From Nitrososphaerota archaeon (lineage in GTDB: Archaea > Thermoproteota > Nitrososphaeria_A > Caldarchaeales > Calditenuaceae), in NCBI GenBank assembly GCA_033581555.1, contig JAVQSZ010000007.1:1-64000 (forward strand): 64,000 bases of DNA, given 5' to 3'. Within the stretch, counting starts at the first letter, position 1, and each line of letters starts with the position of its first letter. A program made the translations under genes and the position numbers. The notes below the pieces were generated by a model, which had not been told where the DNA came from, made no database searches, and saw only the letters and a list, made by a program, of their open reading frames with translations. Positions 2,136 through 63,841 of this stretch are shown here, piece by piece.

Positions 2136-2747
2136 GTGATCAGGGTCTCTGGCGAGGCCCTCGCGAAGGTGCTCAGGCACGGGCTAAGCCACCCTAGGAG
2201 GGAGGTCGCGGGGCTCCTCGTGGGGAGGGAGAGGAAGGAGGAGCTCCTCGTGACGGACGCGGTGACCGGCCGGCAGAGGGGCTCCGCGGGGCACGTCTCC
2301 CTCGACGACTCGCTGATGGTCACGCTCTCAGAGCTGCTGGAGGGCCAGAGGGGGCACCTCTACATCGTCGGGTGGTACCACACCCACCCCGGGATGGGCG
2401 TCTTCCTGTCCGCGGTCGACTACGCGACCCAGCTGAACTACCAGAGGCTCTACCCGAAGGCCGTCGCCCTGGTCGTGGACCCGTGGGAGTTCGCGAAGTC
2501 CAGCGGCCTCTCGCCCTCGTGCTTCAGGTTCTACAGGGTGCTCGAGGACAGCGGCCTCGTCGTCGAGGTCCCGACGCTCGTCGAGGGCGAGGTGAGGGTC
2601 CCGTCCTTCCTCCGCCAGCAGCCGCCTCAGATGCCGTTCTCTGACGATCCCGCGTACTCCTTCGTGGACCCGGAGGGGCGCGTGGGGAGGGGGTTGCTCT
2701 ATTACATAAACGAGCTCATCAGCAGGATATCCTGGTGGAGGCAGTGA
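2136..2747 (+). CDS. rpn11: JAMM/MPN+ metalloprotease, Rpn11-like deubiquitylase
   Basis: E-x(n)-HTHPGMGVFLSAVD JAMM motif. VGWYHTHPG..FLS.VD..TQ..YQ.L...AVALVVDP closely matches eukaryotic Rpn11/Csn5. Confidence 0.88.
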   Translation: MIRVSGEALAKVLRHGLSHPRREVAGLLVGRERKEELLVTDAVTGRQRGSAGHVSLDDSLMVTLSELLEGQRGHLYIVGWYHTHPGMGVFLSAVDYATQLNYQRLYPKAVALVVDPWEFAKSSGLSPSCFRFYRVLEDSGLVVEVPTLVEGEVRVPSFLRQQPPQMPFSDDPAYSFVDPEGRVGRGLLYYINELISRISWWRQ

Positions 2748-3595
2748 CGTTCGACCAGCGCCGCAGGGTCATCATCAGGAGGCGTCCCCTCGACCAGCCC
2801 CAACAGCAGGACACGTTGGCGCAGTCCCCCGCCGTCCAAGCCCCTCCGTCAGGGTTACAGGAGAGGCAGCCCGTCGGGGAGTTCCCGCAGGTCCAACCGG
2901 TCCCCGAGCAGCCTCGTCAGGGATCGGTGGGCCCCGAGGTCGAGGAGCTGGTCAGAAGGGCAGAGGAGGGCGCGAGGAGGGCTAAGGCGAGGTTCGAGGA
3001 GCTCCTCGCGAGGATGGAGGAGATCAAGACGCTGGACAAGTCGATCCAGCGGGTCTTCGTCGAGAAGTATCCCACGCCGAACCTGGCAGTCGTGAAGAGG
3101 AAGCTGAGCGAGCTCGAGGCCGAGAGGAGCAGGGTCCTCGCGACCGCCGGCGACGTCGAGGCGGTGATCCAGCAGGCCGTCAACGAGATAGACTCGGTGA
3201 TCTCGGAGCTCGAGCAGGTTCTCTTCGACAAGTCCGTCGATCTCGAGTACCTCTATGAGGCGAAGGCTGGGGGCAAGCCTGAGAGTCAGGCCAAGATAGC
3301 CGAGCTCGAGGCCGAGTGCAGCAGGATCAGGGACGAGATAGCCCGGATCATGTCAGCGAGGGGAGAGCTGCTCCAGAGGCTAGAGCTCCTCAAGAACCTC
3401 CCGAACCTGATCTACAAGCTGACGACCTATGCCGACCTCGCCCCGGAGTACCTGAAGAGGCTAAAGGAGTCGAAGCCCCTCGACGAGTCCAAGCTCCAGC
3501 ACGCGATCGCGAGGGTCGTCCAGGACGAGCAGGTCCCGAGGGAGTACGCGATCCTCTACCTGTACAAGAAGCTCATGTCCCAGAAGCAGGCGTGA
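2735..3595 (+). CDS. Hypothetical long coiled-coil protein with Pro/Gln-rich N-terminus
   Basis: 286-aa ORF with genome-typical codon usage and heptad pattern; overlaps both flanking genes. Confidence 0.7.
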   Translation: MEAVTFDQRRRVIIRRRPLDQPQQQDTLAQSPAVQAPPSGLQERQPVGEFPQVQPVPEQPRQGSVGPEVEELVRRAEEGARRAKARFEELLARMEEIKTLDKSIQRVFVEKYPTPNLAVVKRKLSELEAERSRVLATAGDVEAVIQQAVNEIDSVISELEQVLFDKSVDLEYLYEAKAGGKPESQAKIAELEAECSRIRDEIARIMSARGELLQRLELLKNLPNLIYKLTTYADLAPEYLKRLKESKPLDESKLQHAIARVVQDEQVPREYAILYLYKKLMSQKQA

Positions 3596-20956: not shown

Positions 20957-21044
20957 GCCGGGGTGCCCGAGCGGACCAAGGGGCAGGCCTTGAGAGCCTG
21001 TGGCCTCGCACGAGGCCGCGCGGGTTCGAATCCCGCCCCCGGCG
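20957..21044 (+). tRNA. tRNA-Ser(UGA), long variable arm, no intron
   Basis: GCCGGGG/CCCCGGC acceptor stem, CAGGC-CT-TGA-GA-GCCTG anticodon arm, GGTTCGAATCC. Confidence 0.95.
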
Positions 21045-21136: not shown

Positions 21137-21146
21137 CTTATTTAGC
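21137..21146 (+). promoter_or_regulatory. Putative TATA box of the ubiquitin operon (leaderless transcript likely)
   Basis: TTATTTA about 25-30 nt upstream of ATG 21170 in an otherwise GC-rich background. Confidence 0.55.
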
Positions 21147-21169: not shown

Positions 21170-21406
21170 ATGAGGGTGAGGATAGTCCCCGCAGTGGGAG
21201 GAGGGCCGCCCCTCGAGATCGACGTCCCGTCGAACACGACCGTGGGCGCGATCAAGCTGAGGGTCTGCGCGATGAAGAAGCTAAGGCCCGACGACGCGAA
21301 GCTCACCTATAAGGGCAGGGCGCTGGGGGACACTGAGACGCTGGAGTCGGCGGGTGTCGCGGAGGGGGACAAATTGGTCCTGGTCACCAGGACGGTCGGC
21401 GGGTGA
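21170..21406 (+). CDS. ubl: Eukaryote-type ubiquitin homologue, exposed C-terminal GG
   Basis: 78 aa, aligns by eye to ubiquitin (TVGAIK..., KLTYKGRAL.D.ETL...GV.EG..L.LV.R.VGG); first gene of an E2-E1 operon. Confidence 0.93.
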   Translation: MRVRIVPAVGGGPPLEIDVPSNTTVGAIKLRVCAMKKLRPDDAKLTYKGRALGDTETLESAGVAEGDKLVLVTRTVGG

Positions 21407-21410
21407 GAGG

Positions 21411-21902
21411 TTGTACAGCGAAGAGGTTGGCCTCCTCCCCGAGCACCTCTGGTACAGGAGGTTGGCCCAGGAGTACCAGCTGGTGAGGAACTACGAGCCG
21501 ACCTTCGACACGGTTAGGGGGGACCTGACCCACTATAGGGGCGTGATAGTCGGGACCGGGCTCTACGAGGGCGGGATGTTCCTCGTCGAGGTCTTCCTGG
21601 ACAGGACCTTCCCCTACACTCCCCCTAAGGTCCTATGGCTCACGAGGATCTGGCACCCGAACTTCACCGACGAGGTCCCCGCGAGGATCTGCGAGTCGAT
21701 CCTCACGAAGGACTGGTACCCGAACATCCACCTGGTCGCGGTAATCGAGGCCCTGAAGAACCTCCTCTCGAACCCGAACCCGGACGACCCGCTAAACGCT
21801 TGGGCCGCGTACGAGATGAAGAACTCCTTCCACACGTTCGTCGCTAGGGTTAGGCAGTACATCGAGCTCTATGCTGCCCCGGAGAAGGTCCTAAGGGGCT
21901 GA
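21411..21902 (+). CDS. Ubiquitin-conjugating enzyme E2
   Basis: YEGG.F, FP.TPPKV, WHPN...ICESIL (catalytic Cys), PNPDDPLN; TTG start at 21411. Confidence 0.95.
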   Translation: MYSEEVGLLPEHLWYRRLAQEYQLVRNYEPTFDTVRGDLTHYRGVIVGTGLYEGGMFLVEVFLDRTFPYTPPKVLWLTRIWHPNFTDEVPARICESILTKDWYPNIHLVAVIEALKNLLSNPNPDDPLNAWAAYEMKNSFHTFVARVRQYIELYAAPEKVLRG

Positions 21903-21905
21903 TTC

Positions 21906-23126
21906 ATGGGGACGCCGGACCTGGAGCGCTACGACAGGCAGATGCGTATCGAGGGCTGGGACCAGGAGCTCGTGATGCGCTCGACGGTCCTGATCGCGGG
22001 CGTCGGCGCCCTAGGGTGCGAGGTCGCGAAGAACCTGGCCCTGGCCGGCGTCGGGAGGTTGATACTCGTTGACAGGGACGTAGTGGAGCTGAGCAACCTG
22101 AACAGGCAGATGCTCTTCCTCGAGGAGGACGTAGGGAAGCCTAAGGCGATCGTTGCAGCCGAGAGGCTGAAGGCGCTGAACCCGCACGTGAAGGTCGAGG
22201 CCTACCACTCGGACCTGAGGGACTTGAGGGAGGATGTCTTCGCGGAGGCCGACGTCATCTGCTCTTGCCTCGACAGCTGGGGCATCAGGAGGTGGCTGAA
22301 CTCGGTCGCGGTCATGCTCTCGAAGCCCCTGGTCGACGGCGCGATGGAGGGGATGGTCGGGAACGTCCAGGTCGTGGTCCCGTTCAGGACCGCCTGCCTC
22401 GAGTGCCACAGCATGACCCTGATACCCCGGGAGGAGAGGCTCGCGGAGTGCACGCTGAGGAAGAGGACGCCGGAGGAGCTGATGAAGGAGCTGGAGGAGC
22501 AGGGGATACAGCTTCCCCTAGAGACCGTGGGGAGGCTCTTCGCCCACAACGTCAAGACCGTCTACGACATCAAGTACTCCAACCCTGCCGACTTCACCGA
22601 CCCAGTCGTCGGCTCTGTGATCGTCTCGCTGAGGGAGAGGCTCAGACCGAAGCTCCCGGCCCTCCAGAGCGTCTCGGCGGTCGTCGCGGGTATAGCCTCC
22701 ACCGAGGTACTCAAACTGATCCACAGGGGGAAGATCGGGAGGCCAAGGAGGGGCCTCTTGGTCTACGACGCTAGGTCCTGCAGGTTCACGGTCGTCCAGC
22801 TCCGCAAGGTCGAGGGCTGCGTCGTCTGTGGGGACAGCGAGACGCCACCCGTGATGGAGGTCGAGCCTGACGGCTCCGTCTCGAGACTCCGCGAGGCGAT
22901 AGCGGAGAGGTTCGGCTTCCCCGACGTCGAGGTCCTCTCCGGGGCAAGGGTCCTCCAGAACGAGGATCGGCTCTCGGACGTCCTCGGAGTGAGGGGCTCG
23001 GCGCTCGTCTACGTCGTGACCTCCAGGCGCTACTCGCCGCTACCGCTCAAGCTGGTCGCTATCGATCGGTCCGGGTCGAAAGACCCATATCCCCCGGGCG
23101 GGAAACGGGCCCGAGTGGAGGGCTGA
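21906..23126 (+). CDS. Ubiquitin-activating enzyme E1 (Uba3-like)
   Basis: RYDRQ, GVGALG, SNLNRQ, Zn CxxC pairs (CLEC, CVVC), putative catalytic Cys in ECTL, probable C-terminal ubiquitin-fold domain. Confidence 0.93.
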   Translation: MGTPDLERYDRQMRIEGWDQELVMRSTVLIAGVGALGCEVAKNLALAGVGRLILVDRDVVELSNLNRQMLFLEEDVGKPKAIVAAERLKALNPHVKVEAYHSDLRDLREDVFAEADVICSCLDSWGIRRWLNSVAVMLSKPLVDGAMEGMVGNVQVVVPFRTACLECHSMTLIPREERLAECTLRKRTPEELMKELEEQGIQLPLETVGRLFAHNVKTVYDIKYSNPADFTDPVVGSVIVSLRERLRPKLPALQSVSAVVAGIASTEVLKLIHRGKIGRPRRGLLVYDARSCRFTVVQLRKVEGCVVCGDSETPPVMEVEPDGSVSRLREAIAERFGFPDVEVLSGARVLQNEDRLSDVLGVRGSALVYVVTSRRYSPLPLKLVAIDRSGSKDPYPPGGKRARVEG

Positions 23127-23686
23127 TGGGTTACTCCGAGGAGGGCGAGAGGGCCCAGGAGCTCGCGGAGCTGAAGGCCTGGCTCGAGAGGAGGATCTCG
23201 GAGCTCCAGTCGGAACTCGAGAGGTTGAGGGCGATGGTGAGGTTCGTCGACGAGGCCCTCGCGAGGACCAGCTTCAAGAGGGCTGACACGCTGATGGCCA
23301 AGAAAGCCCCGGAGCAGCGGCCGGAGCCGGAGGCCGAGGAGAGGCCGACCCTGAGGACGGTCAGGAGCAGGTCAGGGAAGACGCTGGCTACGGTGACGTA
23401 CACCGCGAACGAGGCGAGGTTCGTCCTGAGCCCCGACGTCCAGCTCACGAGGGACCACAGGCCCTTCTCCTCCTTCCTGGTGAGGAAGGTGCTGGACGGG
23501 TTCGTCGCGCAGGACCAAGAGATGGTCAGCAAGGGCTACCTCGACCAGGACCAGGCCTTCTCCTACGAGGTGACCTACGAGGGCGACCTGGTCAAGGAGA
23601 TCGAGGTCAGGAACTACAGGAACGAGGCGAGGCTCAGGGAGATCATCAGCGCGCTCAGGTGGACCCTCGAGACGACTCCCGCCTGA
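23126..23686 (+). CDS. Hypothetical protein with N-terminal coiled coil
   Basis: 186 aa, typical codon usage, TGATG overlap with the E1 stop. Confidence 0.75.
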   Translation: MGYSEEGERAQELAELKAWLERRISELQSELERLRAMVRFVDEALARTSFKRADTLMAKKAPEQRPEPEAEERPTLRTVRSRSGKTLATVTYTANEARFVLSPDVQLTRDHRPFSSFLVRKVLDGFVAQDQEMVSKGYLDQDQAFSYEVTYEGDLVKEIEVRNYRNEARLREIISALRWTLETTPA

Positions 23687-23687
23687 G

Positions 23688-24533
23688 CTACCCGGTCGCC
23701 GGCTCCGTCCACCTGTCGCCGATCGACTCCCTCAGCGTCCTCCTCAACTTCGAGGCCACGCTCCTCGAGACCTCAACGATCTCCTCGAAGACCTCGATAG
23801 GGAGGAGGCCCGGCGTGTTCTTCTGGATCGCCGCGAGCTCGTCGTCGGTCCCCCAGCCCATCACGACCGACGTCTCCAGCGCCGCCTCCTCGATCGCGTT
23901 CGGGTCCACGATCACCCTCTCCCTCAGGACGCCCATCGTCACCGCGGTCGGGAGCTTCACCACAGGGAGCGGGACCCTCTCGCCCTCCGCCTTCGTCAGG
24001 ACTCCGTTCTTGACCTCGTACCTCGGGACGCTGGCGGTCGCGACGGCCGCCGTCGCCGCGAGGACCGCGGGGGTGAAGTAGTTGCCGTCGTAGTCGAGGA
24101 CGTAGACGTCGACGTAGACGACGCCCACCTTCTGGCCCGGGACGAAGGCCAGCTGGTCCAGCCTGAGGGCCTGGGACTCCCTGAGGCACCTGTCGACGAA
24201 CCTCGAGAGCTCGATCGCCCTCTCGTCCGGAGGGCCGGGCTCGAAGGAGGCCGAGGCGAGCGGGAGGAGCTCCGCGTTCACGGTCAGGTTTCCCTTGTCG
24301 GGCGTGTCGGGGTACGGAGAACTCAGGTCGAACTTCACACCCGCGATCACCTTGGTCCCTCCCATCGAGACCATCGCTGAGCCCTCGGCCTTCTGGACGA
24401 CGTCGACCTCGACCTTCACGGGCCTCTGCTGGTGCGGGGCCCTTCCGTCGATCCTGCGGCCGGCCGAGATCAGCTCGTAGAGCTTCTGCTGGACGATCTG
24501 GGTGGGATAGGGCTTCTCCCCGAGCCTGTACAA
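23688..24533 (-). CDS. rrp42: Exosome subunit Rrp42
   Basis: RIDGR, PYPDTPDKG, FEPGPPDE.AIELSR.VDR. Confidence 0.95.
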   Translation of the reverse strand: MYRLGEKPYPTQIVQQKLYELISAGRRIDGRAPHQQRPVKVEVDVVQKAEGSAMVSMGGTKVIAGVKFDLSSPYPDTPDKGNLTVNAELLPLASASFEPGPPDERAIELSRFVDRCLRESQALRLDQLAFVPGQKVGVVYVDVYVLDYDGNYFTPAVLAATAAVATASVPRYEVKNGVLTKAEGERVPLPVVKLPTAVTMGVLRERVIVDPNAIEEAALETSVVMGWGTDDELAAIQKNTPGLLPIEVFEEIVEVSRSVASKLRRTLRESIGDRWTEPATG

Positions 24534-24534
24534 C

Positions 24535-25266
24535 TCACTCCGGGACCTCCCCGTAGGACGCGAACCTCTTCCTGAGGGCCTTCCTCTGGAGGTCGTAAAG
24601 GACGTCGGTCCCCTTCCTCGCCAGCTGCAGCGCCTCCCTCAGCTCCTCCCTCGTGAGCCTGCCGTTGAGCTGTAGGAGCACGATCGAGTTCAGGGCAGGG
24701 GCCATCGCGACCGGCAGGTCGGCCTCGCAGTGCTTGTCCTCGTCCTCGCTCAGGTCTAGCACCAACCTCCCCGCGACCTTCCCGACCGCGACGCCCGCGA
24801 CCAGGTCGGCCATCGGCATCCCCGCGTCCGCGAGAGCGAGTGAAGCGGCTGTGAGCCCGGCCGTCCTCGTCCCAGCGTCGGCCTGGATCACCTCCACGAA
24901 GACGTCGATCACCGACCTCGGGTACTCCTCGAGGAAGACGACGCTCTCCAGTGCCTCCTTGATCACCTTCGAGAGCTCGTGCTCCCTCCTCGTCATCCCC
25001 GGCGACTTCCTCTCGGTGACGCTGAATGAGGTCATGTGGTACCTGCACTGGATGATCGCCCTGTGGGGCTGGGCCAGGTGCCTCGGGTGGGCCTCCCTCG
25101 GCCCGAAGACCGCGGCGTAAATCTTCGTCTTGCCCATCTGGATGTACGCGGAGCCCTCGGCGTTCTCGAGGACACCAGCCTCCATGTAGACGGGCCTCAT
25201 CTCGTCGGGCCTCCGTCCGTCGATCCTGGTCCCGTCCTCCCTGATCAGGGCAAGCTCGCTGGTCAC
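24535..25266 (-). CDS. rrp41: Exosome catalytic subunit Rrp41
   Basis: [30 protein letters not shown]; GTG start at 25266 overlaps the rrp4 stop. Confidence 0.95.
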
Positions 25267-25937
25267 TGGGCGCTCACCTCCTCCCAGAGGTGCCTCCTGA
25301 TAAGTCCCGTCACCTTCTCCTTCAATCCCTCCAGCGCCGGCTCCCTCTCTACTAAGTTTATCGCCGCGACGGCCGCGTACTCCTTCACCGAGGACTGGCC
25401 GACGACCGCGATCAGGCCGTTGAGGCCGACGAAGAGCTTGCACCCGGTCTCCTTCTCGATCGTCTCCTGGAGCTCCCTGTTCCTGACGATGAGCCTCGGG
25501 ACCCTCGCGGGCGACATCCTCACAAGTATCCCCCTCTGAACCCTCGTCGCGTCCTTCCCGGACCTGAGCATCACGCCCTTGACGCCGGCGAAACCTATCG
25601 AGGCGTAGACGACGTCGCCGATTGCGAGGGCCTGCCTTGACCCTCCCTTCTTCTGCTTCGCCCTCAGTATCCCTAAGATGCCCCAGCCCAAGTCGAGCTC
25701 GTAGTGGCTCGGCTTGACGTCCACCACGATACCGACGACCTTGTCGCCTTCTCGGGGCTTATAGGGACCCCTCGCGGGGATCACTTCGATCCTCTGGCCG
25801 ACGACCCTCGCGATCCCCGGGACCGCCGAGTAGACCTTCCCTCCCTGGACGTACGTGTGCTTCCCGGCCCTTCCGGCCTCGTCCGAGAGTGGTTGACCGG
25901 GCACCACGAACTCTTTGTCATTCACGAAATCGACCAT
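25263..25937 (-). CDS. rrp4: Exosome RNA-binding cap subunit Rrp4
   Basis: VVPG N-domain, Y.P..GD.VVG S1 domain, KH-like VPRLI...VGLNG; upstream of rrp41. Confidence 0.88.
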
Positions 25938-62632: not shown

Positions 62633-63841
62633 TCAGTACCTGGGCATGCTGGGGTCGATCCTCTCCGCGTAGGCGTCTATCCCCCCGGCGAGGTTGTAGG
62701 CCCGGGTTATCCCGATGTCCCTGAGTAGCTTGACCGCGAGCGCGCTCCTCTGGCCGGTGTGGCAGTAGACCACGACCCTCTTCGTCTGGTCGATCTCGTG
62801 GAGCCTCGAGGTGAGCTGGCCCAGGGGTATCAGCTTCGCGCCCGGGATGTGGCAGATCTCCCACTCCACGGGTTCCCTCACGTCGATCAGCTCGACCCTC
62901 TCGCCCCGTTCCACCATCTCCTTGAACTGCTCCGGCGTCACGCTGAAGCCCGCGCCCATCTCCTCGCCGGTGACCCTGACGCCGCAGAAGGCCTCGTAGT
63001 CGATCAGCTCCCTGATGGTCGGGTTGTCGCCGCAGACCGGGCAGTTCCTGTCCCTCTGGAAGGAGAGCTCCCTGAAGGTTATCGAGAGCGCGTCGACCAG
63101 CAGGAGCTTCCCTATCAGCGGCCTCCCGACCCCGAGGATCAGCTTGATCGCCTCGTTCGCCTGGAGCGAGCCTATGATCCCCGGAAGGACTCCGAGGACT
63201 CCGCCTTCTGCGCAGGAGGGGACGAGGCCCGGAGGTGGAGGCTCTGGATAGAGGCACCTGTAGCACGGCCCCTTCCCCGCGTAAAAGACCGAGACCTGGC
63301 CGTCGAACCTGAAGATGCTCCCGTAGACCAGCGGCTTGCCGAGGAGGACGCAGGCGTCGTTCAGGAGGTACCTCGTCGGGAAGTTGTCGGTCGCGTCGAT
63401 CACGACGTCGTAGTCCCTGATGACCTCGATGGCGTTCGAGGAGTTGATCGTCGAGTTGTAGGTCGTCACCTCGACGTAGGGGTTGAGCCTCTCGAGCCTC
63501 TCCTTCGCGGCCTCGACCTTCGGCCTCCCGACGTCCTCGGTGGTGAAGAGGACCTGGCGCTGGAGGTTGGTCTCGTCGACCGCGTCGAAGTCGACGATCC
63601 CGATCCTCCCGACGCCCGCGGCCGCGAGGTAGAGCGCCACCGGAGACCCGAGGCCTCCGGCCCCGACCACCAGGACCTTCGCAGCCTTCAGCCTCCTCTG
63701 CCCCTTCATCCCGACCTCCGGCATGATCAGGTGTCTCCCGTACCTCCTGATCTCCGGGAAGCTCAGCGCGACCTCCTCCCATCCCCTAACGACCGGTTCG
63801 ATCGACGCTAGCTCGACCACCTCGCCGCCCCTGAAGTCCAT
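62633..63841 (-). CDS. moeB: MoeB/MoeZ-type adenylyltransferase-rhodanese fusion
   Basis: RYGRH, GAGGLG, TNLQRQ, CYRC, SCAEGGVLG, CPVC, rhodanese DVRE..E and CHTGQRS. Confidence 0.93.
   Translation of the reverse strand: MDFRGGEVVELASIEPVVRGWEEVALSFPEIRRYGRHLIMPEVGMKGQRRLKAAKVLVVGAGGLGSPVALYLAAAGVGRIGIVDFDAVDETNLQRQVLFTTEDVGRPKVEAAKERLERLNPYVEVTTYNSTINSSNAIEVIRDYDVVIDATDNFPTRYLLNDACVLLGKPLVYGSIFRFDGQVSVFYAGKGPCYRCLYPEPPPPGLVPSCAEGGVLGVLPGIIGSLQANEAIKLILGVGRPLIGKLLLVDALSITFRELSFQRDRNCPVCGDNPTIRELIDYEAFCGVRVTGEEMGAGFSVTPEQFKEMVERGERVELIDVREPVEWEICHIPGAKLIPLGQLTSRLHEIDQTKRVVVYCHTGQRSALAVKLLRDIGITRAYNLAGGIDAYAERIDPSMPRY

Follow-up and report, generated by a model that had tools for sequence, protein, structure and literature searches.

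A dispersed set of ubiquitylation genes in a Calditenuaceae archaeon, probably orthologous to that of Candidatus Caldiarchaeum subterraneum

Does a compact archaeal cluster of genes for ubiquitin, a ubiquitin-conjugating enzyme (E2) and a ubiquitin-activating enzyme (E1), with neither a RING-type ubiquitin ligase (E3) nor an Rpn11-like protease beside it, represent a variant ubiquitin system, or a known one whose genes have come to lie apart? The question is raised by a 64,000-nucleotide stretch from a hot-spring Nitrososphaerota archaeon of the family Calditenuaceae (GenBank assembly GCA_033581555.1, contig JAVQSZ010000007.1). This stretch, hereafter the window, corresponds to C7:1-64000 of genome G000 and belongs to an archaeal contig, with a G+C content of 65%. 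The published ubiquitylation cluster of Candidatus Caldiarchaeum subterraneum comprises genes for Rpn11, ubiquitin, E2-like and E1-like proteins and the small RING protein srfp (PMC3082918, PMC5654768). An earlier, sequence-only reading of the window had recognized the ubiquitin, E2 and E1 genes and proposed that this lineage relies on E3s encoded elsewhere, on E3-independent conjugation or on a new type of ligase. We consider it very probable that the locus is an orthologue of the C. subterraneum system, the accessory genes of which have drifted away from the ubiquitin-E2-E1 core. Judged by its gene content, the system is complete, with RING and Rpn11 proteins encoded elsewhere in the same genome, and amounts to a rearranged version of a known system rather than to a new mechanism.

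The ubiquitin-E2-E1 core and its dispersed partners

Four tightly spaced open reading frames (ORFs) of the forward strand, encoding ubiquitin, E2, E1 and a fourth protein (ORF4), are located between a tRNA-Ser gene and a set of exosome genes (Table 1). The ubiquitin stop codon is separated from the TTG codon of E2 by 4 nt and the E2 stop codon from the E1 ATG by 3 nt, whereas the E1 TGA and the ORF4 ATG overlap by 1 nt in the sequence TGATG (a spacing of -1 nt). The TATA-like box preceding ubiquitin is a putative promoter element of the cluster, and the tight packing behind a single box of this kind, described in the sequence-only reading, is borne out. All four ORFs show a G+C content at third codon positions (GC3) of 0.88-0.96, a strong bias typical of real genes in this genome.

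Pfam matches (Table 1) and alignments of invariant motifs confirm the identity of the three core proteins, including the HPN motif and catalytic Cys of the E2 and the adenylation, zinc and ECTL Cys motifs of the E1 on which the earlier assignment had been based. Alignments of the E2 with five or six orthologues show no variation at H82-P83-N84 and C94. The longest ORF of this gene begins with GTG at position 21354, and translation probably starts at TTG 21411, the likelier start, just past the ubiquitin stop codon. In the seven-sequence alignment of the E1, the invariant columns include G32-x-G34-x-x-G37, the cysteine pairs C164/C167 and C305/C308, and E181-C182 within AECTL. The E1 also contains a C-terminal ubiquitin-like stretch (residues 317-373, a weak PF00240 match) and reaches 120 bits against the model of SAMP-activating E1, far below its cut-off of 450. 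Ubiquitin is encoded in the mature form, with the C-terminus TRTVGG immediately followed by the stop codon.

For comparison, we used an order sample of 41 related genomes, which represent four families (the organism's own, f1, and f2, f3 and f4). Approximately 14 kb around the E2 gene were taken from 20 of these genomes, yielding 20 compared loci, in which some absences are due to truncation by contig ends; seven canonical loci were mapped onto the genome under study. The organism's own genus is represented by seven genomes, and the other genera of its family are denoted g2, g3 and g4. Broader distribution was assessed in a class sample of 76 genomes and a phylum sample of 201 genomes.

The protease gene is present in the window itself. 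A search with PF01398 over the entire genome yielded three JAB proteins, of which the best (64.6-66.8 bits) is encoded 19 kb upstream of the core. It is 42-48% identical to the operon-adjacent JAB proteins present in 17 of the 20 compared loci, and it is the best match in this genome of the JAB genes from all five mapped loci that have one (L040, L041, L043, L046 and L052). In the same five loci, homologues of the adjoining coiled-coil gene, which matches no Pfam family at E 1e-5, directly follow the JAB gene as well. Because of the best match and the shared partner gene, we assign this protein, from its sequence and context, as the orthologue of the operon-adjacent Rpn11 of the other families. 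The sequence-only reading was thus right that no Rpn11 gene stands beside the cluster but missed the JAB orthologue elsewhere in the same window. In this genus, the coiled-coil partner has moved together with the JAB gene.

A search for RING proteins over the whole genome, of the kind proposed in the earlier reading, shows that the RING proteins are encoded outside the window. The classical RING regular expression produced no real match among all six-frame ORFs, because archaeal srfp has C4HC3 spacing. PF13639 produced five matches and a C4HC3 expression four, none of them in the window, so that the earlier statement that no RING motif is recognizable in these 64 kb stands. Two proteins stand out among the matches (Table 1), namely, an srfp-type small RING protein encoded on the same contig, 74 kb downstream of the core, and a membrane-anchored RING protein, the N-terminal 160 residues of which include about four hydrophobic segments. 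In an alignment of 12 sequences, the small RING protein retains every invariant position, namely, the eight zinc ligands (C4HC3), E43, P54, P76 and, in the N-terminal G-x-W motif, G30 and W32. Like the other srfps of the family, it also has the linchpin Arg/Lys that comes after the final Cys. It matches the operon-encoded srfp of family f2 (tblastn, E ~2e-10), the best match of which in this genome is C7:97773-97943. According to the profile built from the 12-sequence alignment, an srfp-type protein is encoded in 39 of the 41 genomes of the order; the two misses, with completeness values of 84% and 73%, both belong to the organism's own genus. The membrane RING protein type was found with the same profile in nearly all 41 genomes, with homologues in L043-L057; here, its gene lies together with both of its canonical neighbours at C1:25.3-28.2 kb. 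The main text of PMC5654768 nowhere uses the term 'transmembrane'.

Two weaker RING-like fingers are also encoded (Table 1). One of these (L009; Prok-RING_1, E 0.0016) adjoins genes for pilin-like and coiled-coil proteins, 2.2 kb from a second ubiquitin-like system considered below.

Taken together, the E3s encoded elsewhere, one of the options offered previously, are represented by concrete candidates, and no evidence calls for either E3-independent conjugation or a new type of ligase, given two RING proteins in the genome and the phylum-wide distribution of ORF4. The proposal of a variant system does not hold, insofar as sequence can tell, because orthologues of Rpn11 and of the RING protein are encoded in the same genome and srfp is found nearly throughout the order. 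In the scheme that follows, the genes, motifs, orthology and positions are observed, and every biochemical step is extrapolated by orthology from the reconstituted system. Ubiquitin would be translated already ending in Gly-Gly, with no need for processing by Rpn11; the E1 would adenylate it and form a thioester on Cys182; ubiquitin would then be passed to Cys94 of the E2; its transfer to substrate lysines would be promoted by srfp and/or the membrane RING protein; and the Rpn11-like JAMM protease would remove it.

Table 1. Positions of the features discussed; positions without a contig label are those of the window.
Feature	Position	Strand	Remarks
Rpn11-like JAMM/MPN metalloprotease	2136-2747	+	PF01398; HxHx7Sx2D motif in translation
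Coiled-coil partner gene	2744-3583	+	directly after the JAB gene; start codon uncertain
tRNA-Ser(TGA)	20957-21044	+	directly upstream of the ubiquitin promoter region
TATA-like box TTATTTA	21139-21145	+	25 nt before the ubiquitin ATG; read from sequence
Ubiquitin, 78 aa	21170-21406	+	PF00240, 47 bits, E 2.2e-12
E2 ubiquitin-conjugating enzyme, 163 aa	21411-21902	+	UQ_con, 91.6 bits, E 4.3e-26
E1 ubiquitin-activating enzyme, 406 aa	21906-23126	+	ThiF, 207 bits, E 3e-61
ORF4, 186 aa	23126-23686	+	GC3 0.96; coiled-coil helix and alpha/beta domain
Exosome genes Rrp42, Rrp41, Rrp4	23688-25937	-	downstream of ORF4, opposite strand
Metagenome contig X5, record 32	21284-24600		span in the window
Metagenome contig X4, record 22	21811-23627		span in the window
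Metagenome contig X3, record 15	22689-23931		span in the window
srfp-type small RING protein, ~83 aa	C7:97698-97946		same contig, beyond the window; PF13639, 26.3-26.9 bits
Membrane-anchored RING protein, 291 aa	C1:25808-26680		C-terminal RING; PF13639, 32.7 bits
Weaker RING-like finger (L009), 108 aa	C1:98489-98815		degenerate, RING/PHD-like; CxxD...CxxC...H..C...CxxC
Weaker RING-like finger, fourth of the genome	C3:76737-77321		C-terminal C4HC3 finger; CBS-domain protein by eye

Gene order and sequence divergence across the order

The E2 is encoded in all 41 genomes of the order. Its sequence identity declines smoothly, from 86-98% in the genus to 67-79% in the family and 58-68% in the order, a pattern that fits vertical descent. 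Comparison of operon structure across the order, another of the checks suggested earlier, revealed that the full cluster is kept in families f2-f4 and dispersed in the organism's own family. In f2-f4, the coiled-coil and JAB genes are divergent from a ubiquitin-E2-E1-small RING array, with the membrane RING gene a further ~1.5-2 kb away. Among the 20 loci, the small RING gene follows E1 in 14, the JAB gene lies beside ubiquitin in 17 and the membrane RING gene is present in 12. In one locus of family f3 (L050; G037:C23:142500-155597), no E1 match was found in the ~7 kb taken beyond E2. The srfp and membrane RING genes of that genome are on another contig, suggesting that the cluster can break up outside the organism's own family too.

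All the families and genera compared (f2-f4, g2, g3 and g4) have ubiquitin, E2, E1, JAB, small RING and membrane RING genes, and the differences concern their arrangement. Within the organism's own family, srfp is never beside E1. In g2, g3 and g4, it lies ~2 kb from the membrane RING gene and far from the ubiquitin genes (~85 kb, as measured in G008). In g3 and g4, the JAB gene is still beside ubiquitin-E2-E1; in g2, it is beside ubiquitin, but E2-E1 is ~10 kb away. In the organism's own genus, srfp and the membrane RING gene are also apart from each other, and the JAB gene is 19 kb (G000 and G002) or 69 kb (G001) from ubiquitin or on another contig. Among the groups compared, only this genus splits all the genes and adds ORF4. 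In G008, homologues of the genes that flank srfp in the genome under study (C7:96.9-99 kb) are located 1.3-4.4 kb from E1, a hint of local rearrangement.

The form in which ubiquitin is encoded follows the same division. In the organism's own genome and in 17 others of its family (18 of 18 inspected), the stop codon comes directly after Gly-Gly, whereas all 16 inspected genomes of families f2-f4 encode 2-20 further residues past it. The ubiquitin of G024 carries exactly the nine-residue propeptide given for C. subterraneum in passages of PMC5654768, and because of this identity, the cluster of the order can be equated with the characterized system. According to the same source, the C. subterraneum propeptide blocks activation by the E1 until Rpn11 removes it (PMC5654768). 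In this family, ubiquitin is encoded ready-made, and Rpn11 would therefore not be needed for its maturation. The passages of PMC5654768, PMC6053391 and PMC10547907 that were consulted describe neither ready-made ubiquitin nor a dispersed layout, although Supplementary Fig. 1 of PMC5654768 (clusters I-III) may depict such layouts.

The genome under study and C. subterraneum thus share the same five protein families, with identities to the G024 proteins of 72% for ubiquitin, 60% for E2 and 47% each for E1 and JAB, as well as the ubiquitin-E2-E1 order, the catalytic motifs, the C-terminal ubiquitin-like domain of the E1 and a C4HC3 small RING protein with G-x-W. By contrast, ubiquitin has no propeptide here and nine residues after Gly-Gly there; Rpn11 is 19 kb away rather than divergently adjacent; srfp, directly after E1 in C. 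subterraneum, is 74 kb away and has Ser and Leu at the positions of I30 and W58; the membrane RING gene is on another contig; and an unrelated, conserved ORF4 follows E1. Of the features that define the Caldiarchaeum type, this genome has ubiquitin with Gly-Gly, E1, E2, srfp and an Rpn11-like JAMM protein but lacks the clustering of the five genes and a pro-ubiquitin requiring cleavage by Rpn11. Clustering characterizes the type locus and has no bearing on the biochemistry as such.

Beyond the order, the only E2-like matches in the phylum sample are two partial UQ_con hits in another family of the phylum, f22 (G108:C16:41457-41678 and G136:C11:22135-22356; 66-67 bits, profile positions 47-119).

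Competing explanations

Several points weigh against this reading of the locus as a dispersed orthologous system. The 1.43-Mb genome is split into 72 contigs and 90.6% complete. The PF13639 score of the small RING protein is slightly below the cut-off of 27.3 bits, and its score of 80 bits against profile A1 is partly circular, as the 12 rows of the profile include this very sequence. The protein has Ser at the I30 position (CDSC) and Leu at the W58 position. Finally, in all seven genomes of the genus, ORF4 stands directly after E1 with overlapping stop and start codons, and relocation explains this placement only as chance followed by inheritance.

The two RING substitutions lead to an alternative in which the small RING protein of this family, having diverged from the E2, has stopped acting as its ligase, and the membrane RING protein is the working E3. 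In the C. subterraneum srfp, the I30Q mutation abolished activity and W58A impaired chain formation, according to passages of PMC5654768. The protein encoded here, which has no hydrophobic residue between C1 and C2 and no Trp58, departs from the canonical E2-binding surface, and so does its family: CD[AS]C or CEVC replaces CVIC, Leu replaces Trp58 and GAVFH replaces GAVGH in this gene and in all eight further f1 loci. Furthermore, the canonical E2-contact Ile and Trp are retained in the membrane RING protein (C-[VIM]-I-C), both in this genome and in the five of eight f1 loci where it was found. However, the preserved zinc ligands, linchpin residue and G-x-W motif of srfp, together with its retention in the order, speak against this alternative. 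The E2, in which loop 4 reads FPY, has WYPN in loop 7 in this family compared with WSPS or WRPG in the others, a change that could be compensatory. The srfp contact residues and loop 7 of the E2 appear to have changed together, but this represents a single evolutionary event and is an observation rather than a test of co-evolution.

Structure prediction also places srfp on the canonical surface of the E2. The predicted complex of the two proteins with two zinc ions scored 0.78, compared with 0.00 for the best of three controls, on a scale where 58 of 80 solved complexes attain the same mark, as do 2 of 110 mismatched pairs. Across three runs, at least 93% of the contacts agree, with a predicted local distance difference test (pLDDT) value of at least 67 for the partner. 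The modelled contacts involve helix 1, loop 4 (residues 68-69) and loop 7 (103-106) of the E2, on the one side, and the first zinc loop and the central helix of the RING, on the other. Because E2-RING complexes have already been solved, the model may echo these, and its passing the mark denotes likeness to them rather than binding of this particular pair. On balance, a small RING protein that has ceased to be the ligase of this E2 appears rather unlikely, and we favour the orthologous system with srfp and/or the membrane RING protein as E3.

A second alternative holds that conjugation is E3-independent or that ORF4 is a new kind of ligase or adaptor. ORF4 occupies the position after E1 that is held by srfp in other families, overlaps E1 in TGATG and is fixed there in the seven genomes of the genus. 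It matches nothing in Pfam, NCBIfam, PADLOC or the sequences of the PDB. The AlphaFold2 model is confident (pLDDT 92) and consists of a helix (residues 3-47), a linker and a domain with the succession three strands, helix, two strands, helix, but a Foldseek search of the PDB with the full-length model gave no match under E 0.03, and the best match in the wide VIA-align search was a designed protein (Z 6.6), the others being coiled-coil matches of residues 1-60. Matches in the protein atlas were confined to unnamed archaeal clusters. In addition, the E1 and E2 of C. subterraneum auto-ubiquitylate without an E3, as passages of PMC5654768 indicate.

The distribution of ORF4, however, is not that of a ubiquitin component. 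Homologues are present in 39 of the 41 genomes of the order sample, 69 of 76 of the larger class sample and 172 of 201 of the phylum sample, compared with 28 of 201 for the E2 family. Six genomes of other genera have ORF4 at a great distance from the ubiquitin genes; its neighbour is an ATP-dependent DNA-ligase-like gene (identified by eye from the KYDGER motif) in four of the six and a large surface protein gene in five. The genome under study retains two RING proteins, and modification of Rad50 in C. subterraneum required srfp, according to passages of PMC5654768. We thus regard both E3-independent conjugation and a ligase function of ORF4 as very unlikely. ORF4 is best read as a relocated, phylum-wide gene of the housekeeping type, probably co-transcribed with the three core genes but not specific to ubiquitin and no candidate ligase; the rearrangement that placed ubiquitin-E2-E1 beside the exosome genes would also have brought ORF4 next to E1 in this genus. 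The family as such, with 339 clusters at E ≤0.001 among 1.84 billion library representatives, is a widespread archaeal protein that lacks annotation and, despite the confident model, any convincing structural match.

The fragmentation of the assembly and the several different ways in which linkage erodes across the family are what could be expected if the separation of the genes were an artefact of assembly or binning or if the cassette were decaying and inactive. Yet, contigs from hot-spring metagenomes of three other, independent studies bridge E2-E1-ORF4-Rrp42 (Table 1), and because of this bridging, the layout of the cluster is not an assembly artefact. The same order, ubiquitin-E2-E1-ORF4-exosome, is found in G001, a genome of the same genus in only three contigs. 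The invariance of all the catalytic residues and the GC3 values of the four ORFs speak against decay, and both versions of this explanation appear extremely unlikely. As a separate observation, the depth of metagenome contigs spikes at the tRNA-Ser gene, where many contigs stop, because this tRNA is common to other organisms.

The same differences could also signify a more thorough rewiring of the system, in which ready-made ubiquitin frees Rpn11 from maturation, srfp and loop 7 of the E2 have changed jointly, and, in this genus, the E1 has become translationally coupled to ORF4, which could have been enlisted specifically for conjugation as a substrate, an adaptor or a regulator. We consider such a rewiring unlikely and retain the dispersed orthologous system as the preferred reading.

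Relation to other ubiquitin-like systems and implications

With the eukaryotic cascade (E1-E2-RING, with Rpn11/CSN5), the system shares domain families, the HPN and Cys motifs of the E2, the adenylation and Cys motifs of the E1 and the JAMM motif, and the predicted E2-RING interface likewise involves helix 1, loop 4 and loop 7. It differs in having a single-domain E1 of the homodimer type (406 aa), one E2 and two to four RING-like proteins; furthermore, Rpn11 is a stand-alone protein, as stated in passages of PMC5654768.

Likeness to the bacterial E1/E2/JAB operons, that is, Cap2/Cap3 of the cyclic-oligonucleotide-based anti-phage signalling system (CBASS) and the Bil-type antiviral ubiquitination (PMC10557695), is confined to weak PADLOC matches. 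The E1-E2 models reach at most 84.7 bits, over the adenylation domain of the E1 only, and JAB reaches 23 bits; neither the E2 nor ORF4 matches any PADLOC model. In contrast to the defence operons, the E1 and E2 are not fused here, and the system is universal and apparently vertically inherited in the order, whereas the defence operons are patchily distributed. A defence function was considered and rejected, the PADLOC similarity being merely generic for E1 and JAB proteins.

A second, separate ubiquitin-like locus of the same genome, located outside the window (C1:93416-96282; L005 and L016), resembles the bacterial E1/E2/JAB style more closely than the ubiquitin-E2-E1 cluster does. It encodes an E1-like protein (ThiF, 157.6 bits); a pilin-like protein of 137 aa; a 276-aa protein in which a ubiquitin-like domain, with PRPVGG at its end, is fused to an E2-like domain that contains HPN (UQ_con, 31 bits); and a JAB protein of 160 aa. 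The GC3 values of these genes (0.76-0.86) are below those typical of the window (mostly ≥0.9), and within the order sample, the E2-like match is confined to six of the seven genomes of the organism's own genus.

The archaeal SAMP/Urm1-type systems, with a UbaA/MoeB-like E1, have a ThiF-family E1 in common with the cluster; to our knowledge, they include neither an E2 nor a RING protein. The reverse strand of the window encodes, at 62633-63841, an E1 of the MoeB/ThiF type that carries a rhodanese domain (ThiF, 297.7 bits; Rhodanese, 77.8 bits). This protein is the sulfur-carrier or SAMP-type E1 of the genome and differs from the E1 of the ubiquitin cluster.

No prokaryotic model of how eukaryotic ubiquitylation arose has been studied better than the Caldiarchaeum-type cluster. 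As the comparison presented here shows, the lineage does not always keep the five genes in one compact operon: in one family, the ubiquitin-E2-E1 core stays together, the ligase and protease genes drift apart and the propeptide is lost. For annotation, it follows that an operon apparently devoid of a RING gene does not imply a genome devoid of an E3. The family to which this archaeon belongs thus provides a natural comparison for the purpose of the propeptide and of the linkage to Rpn11.

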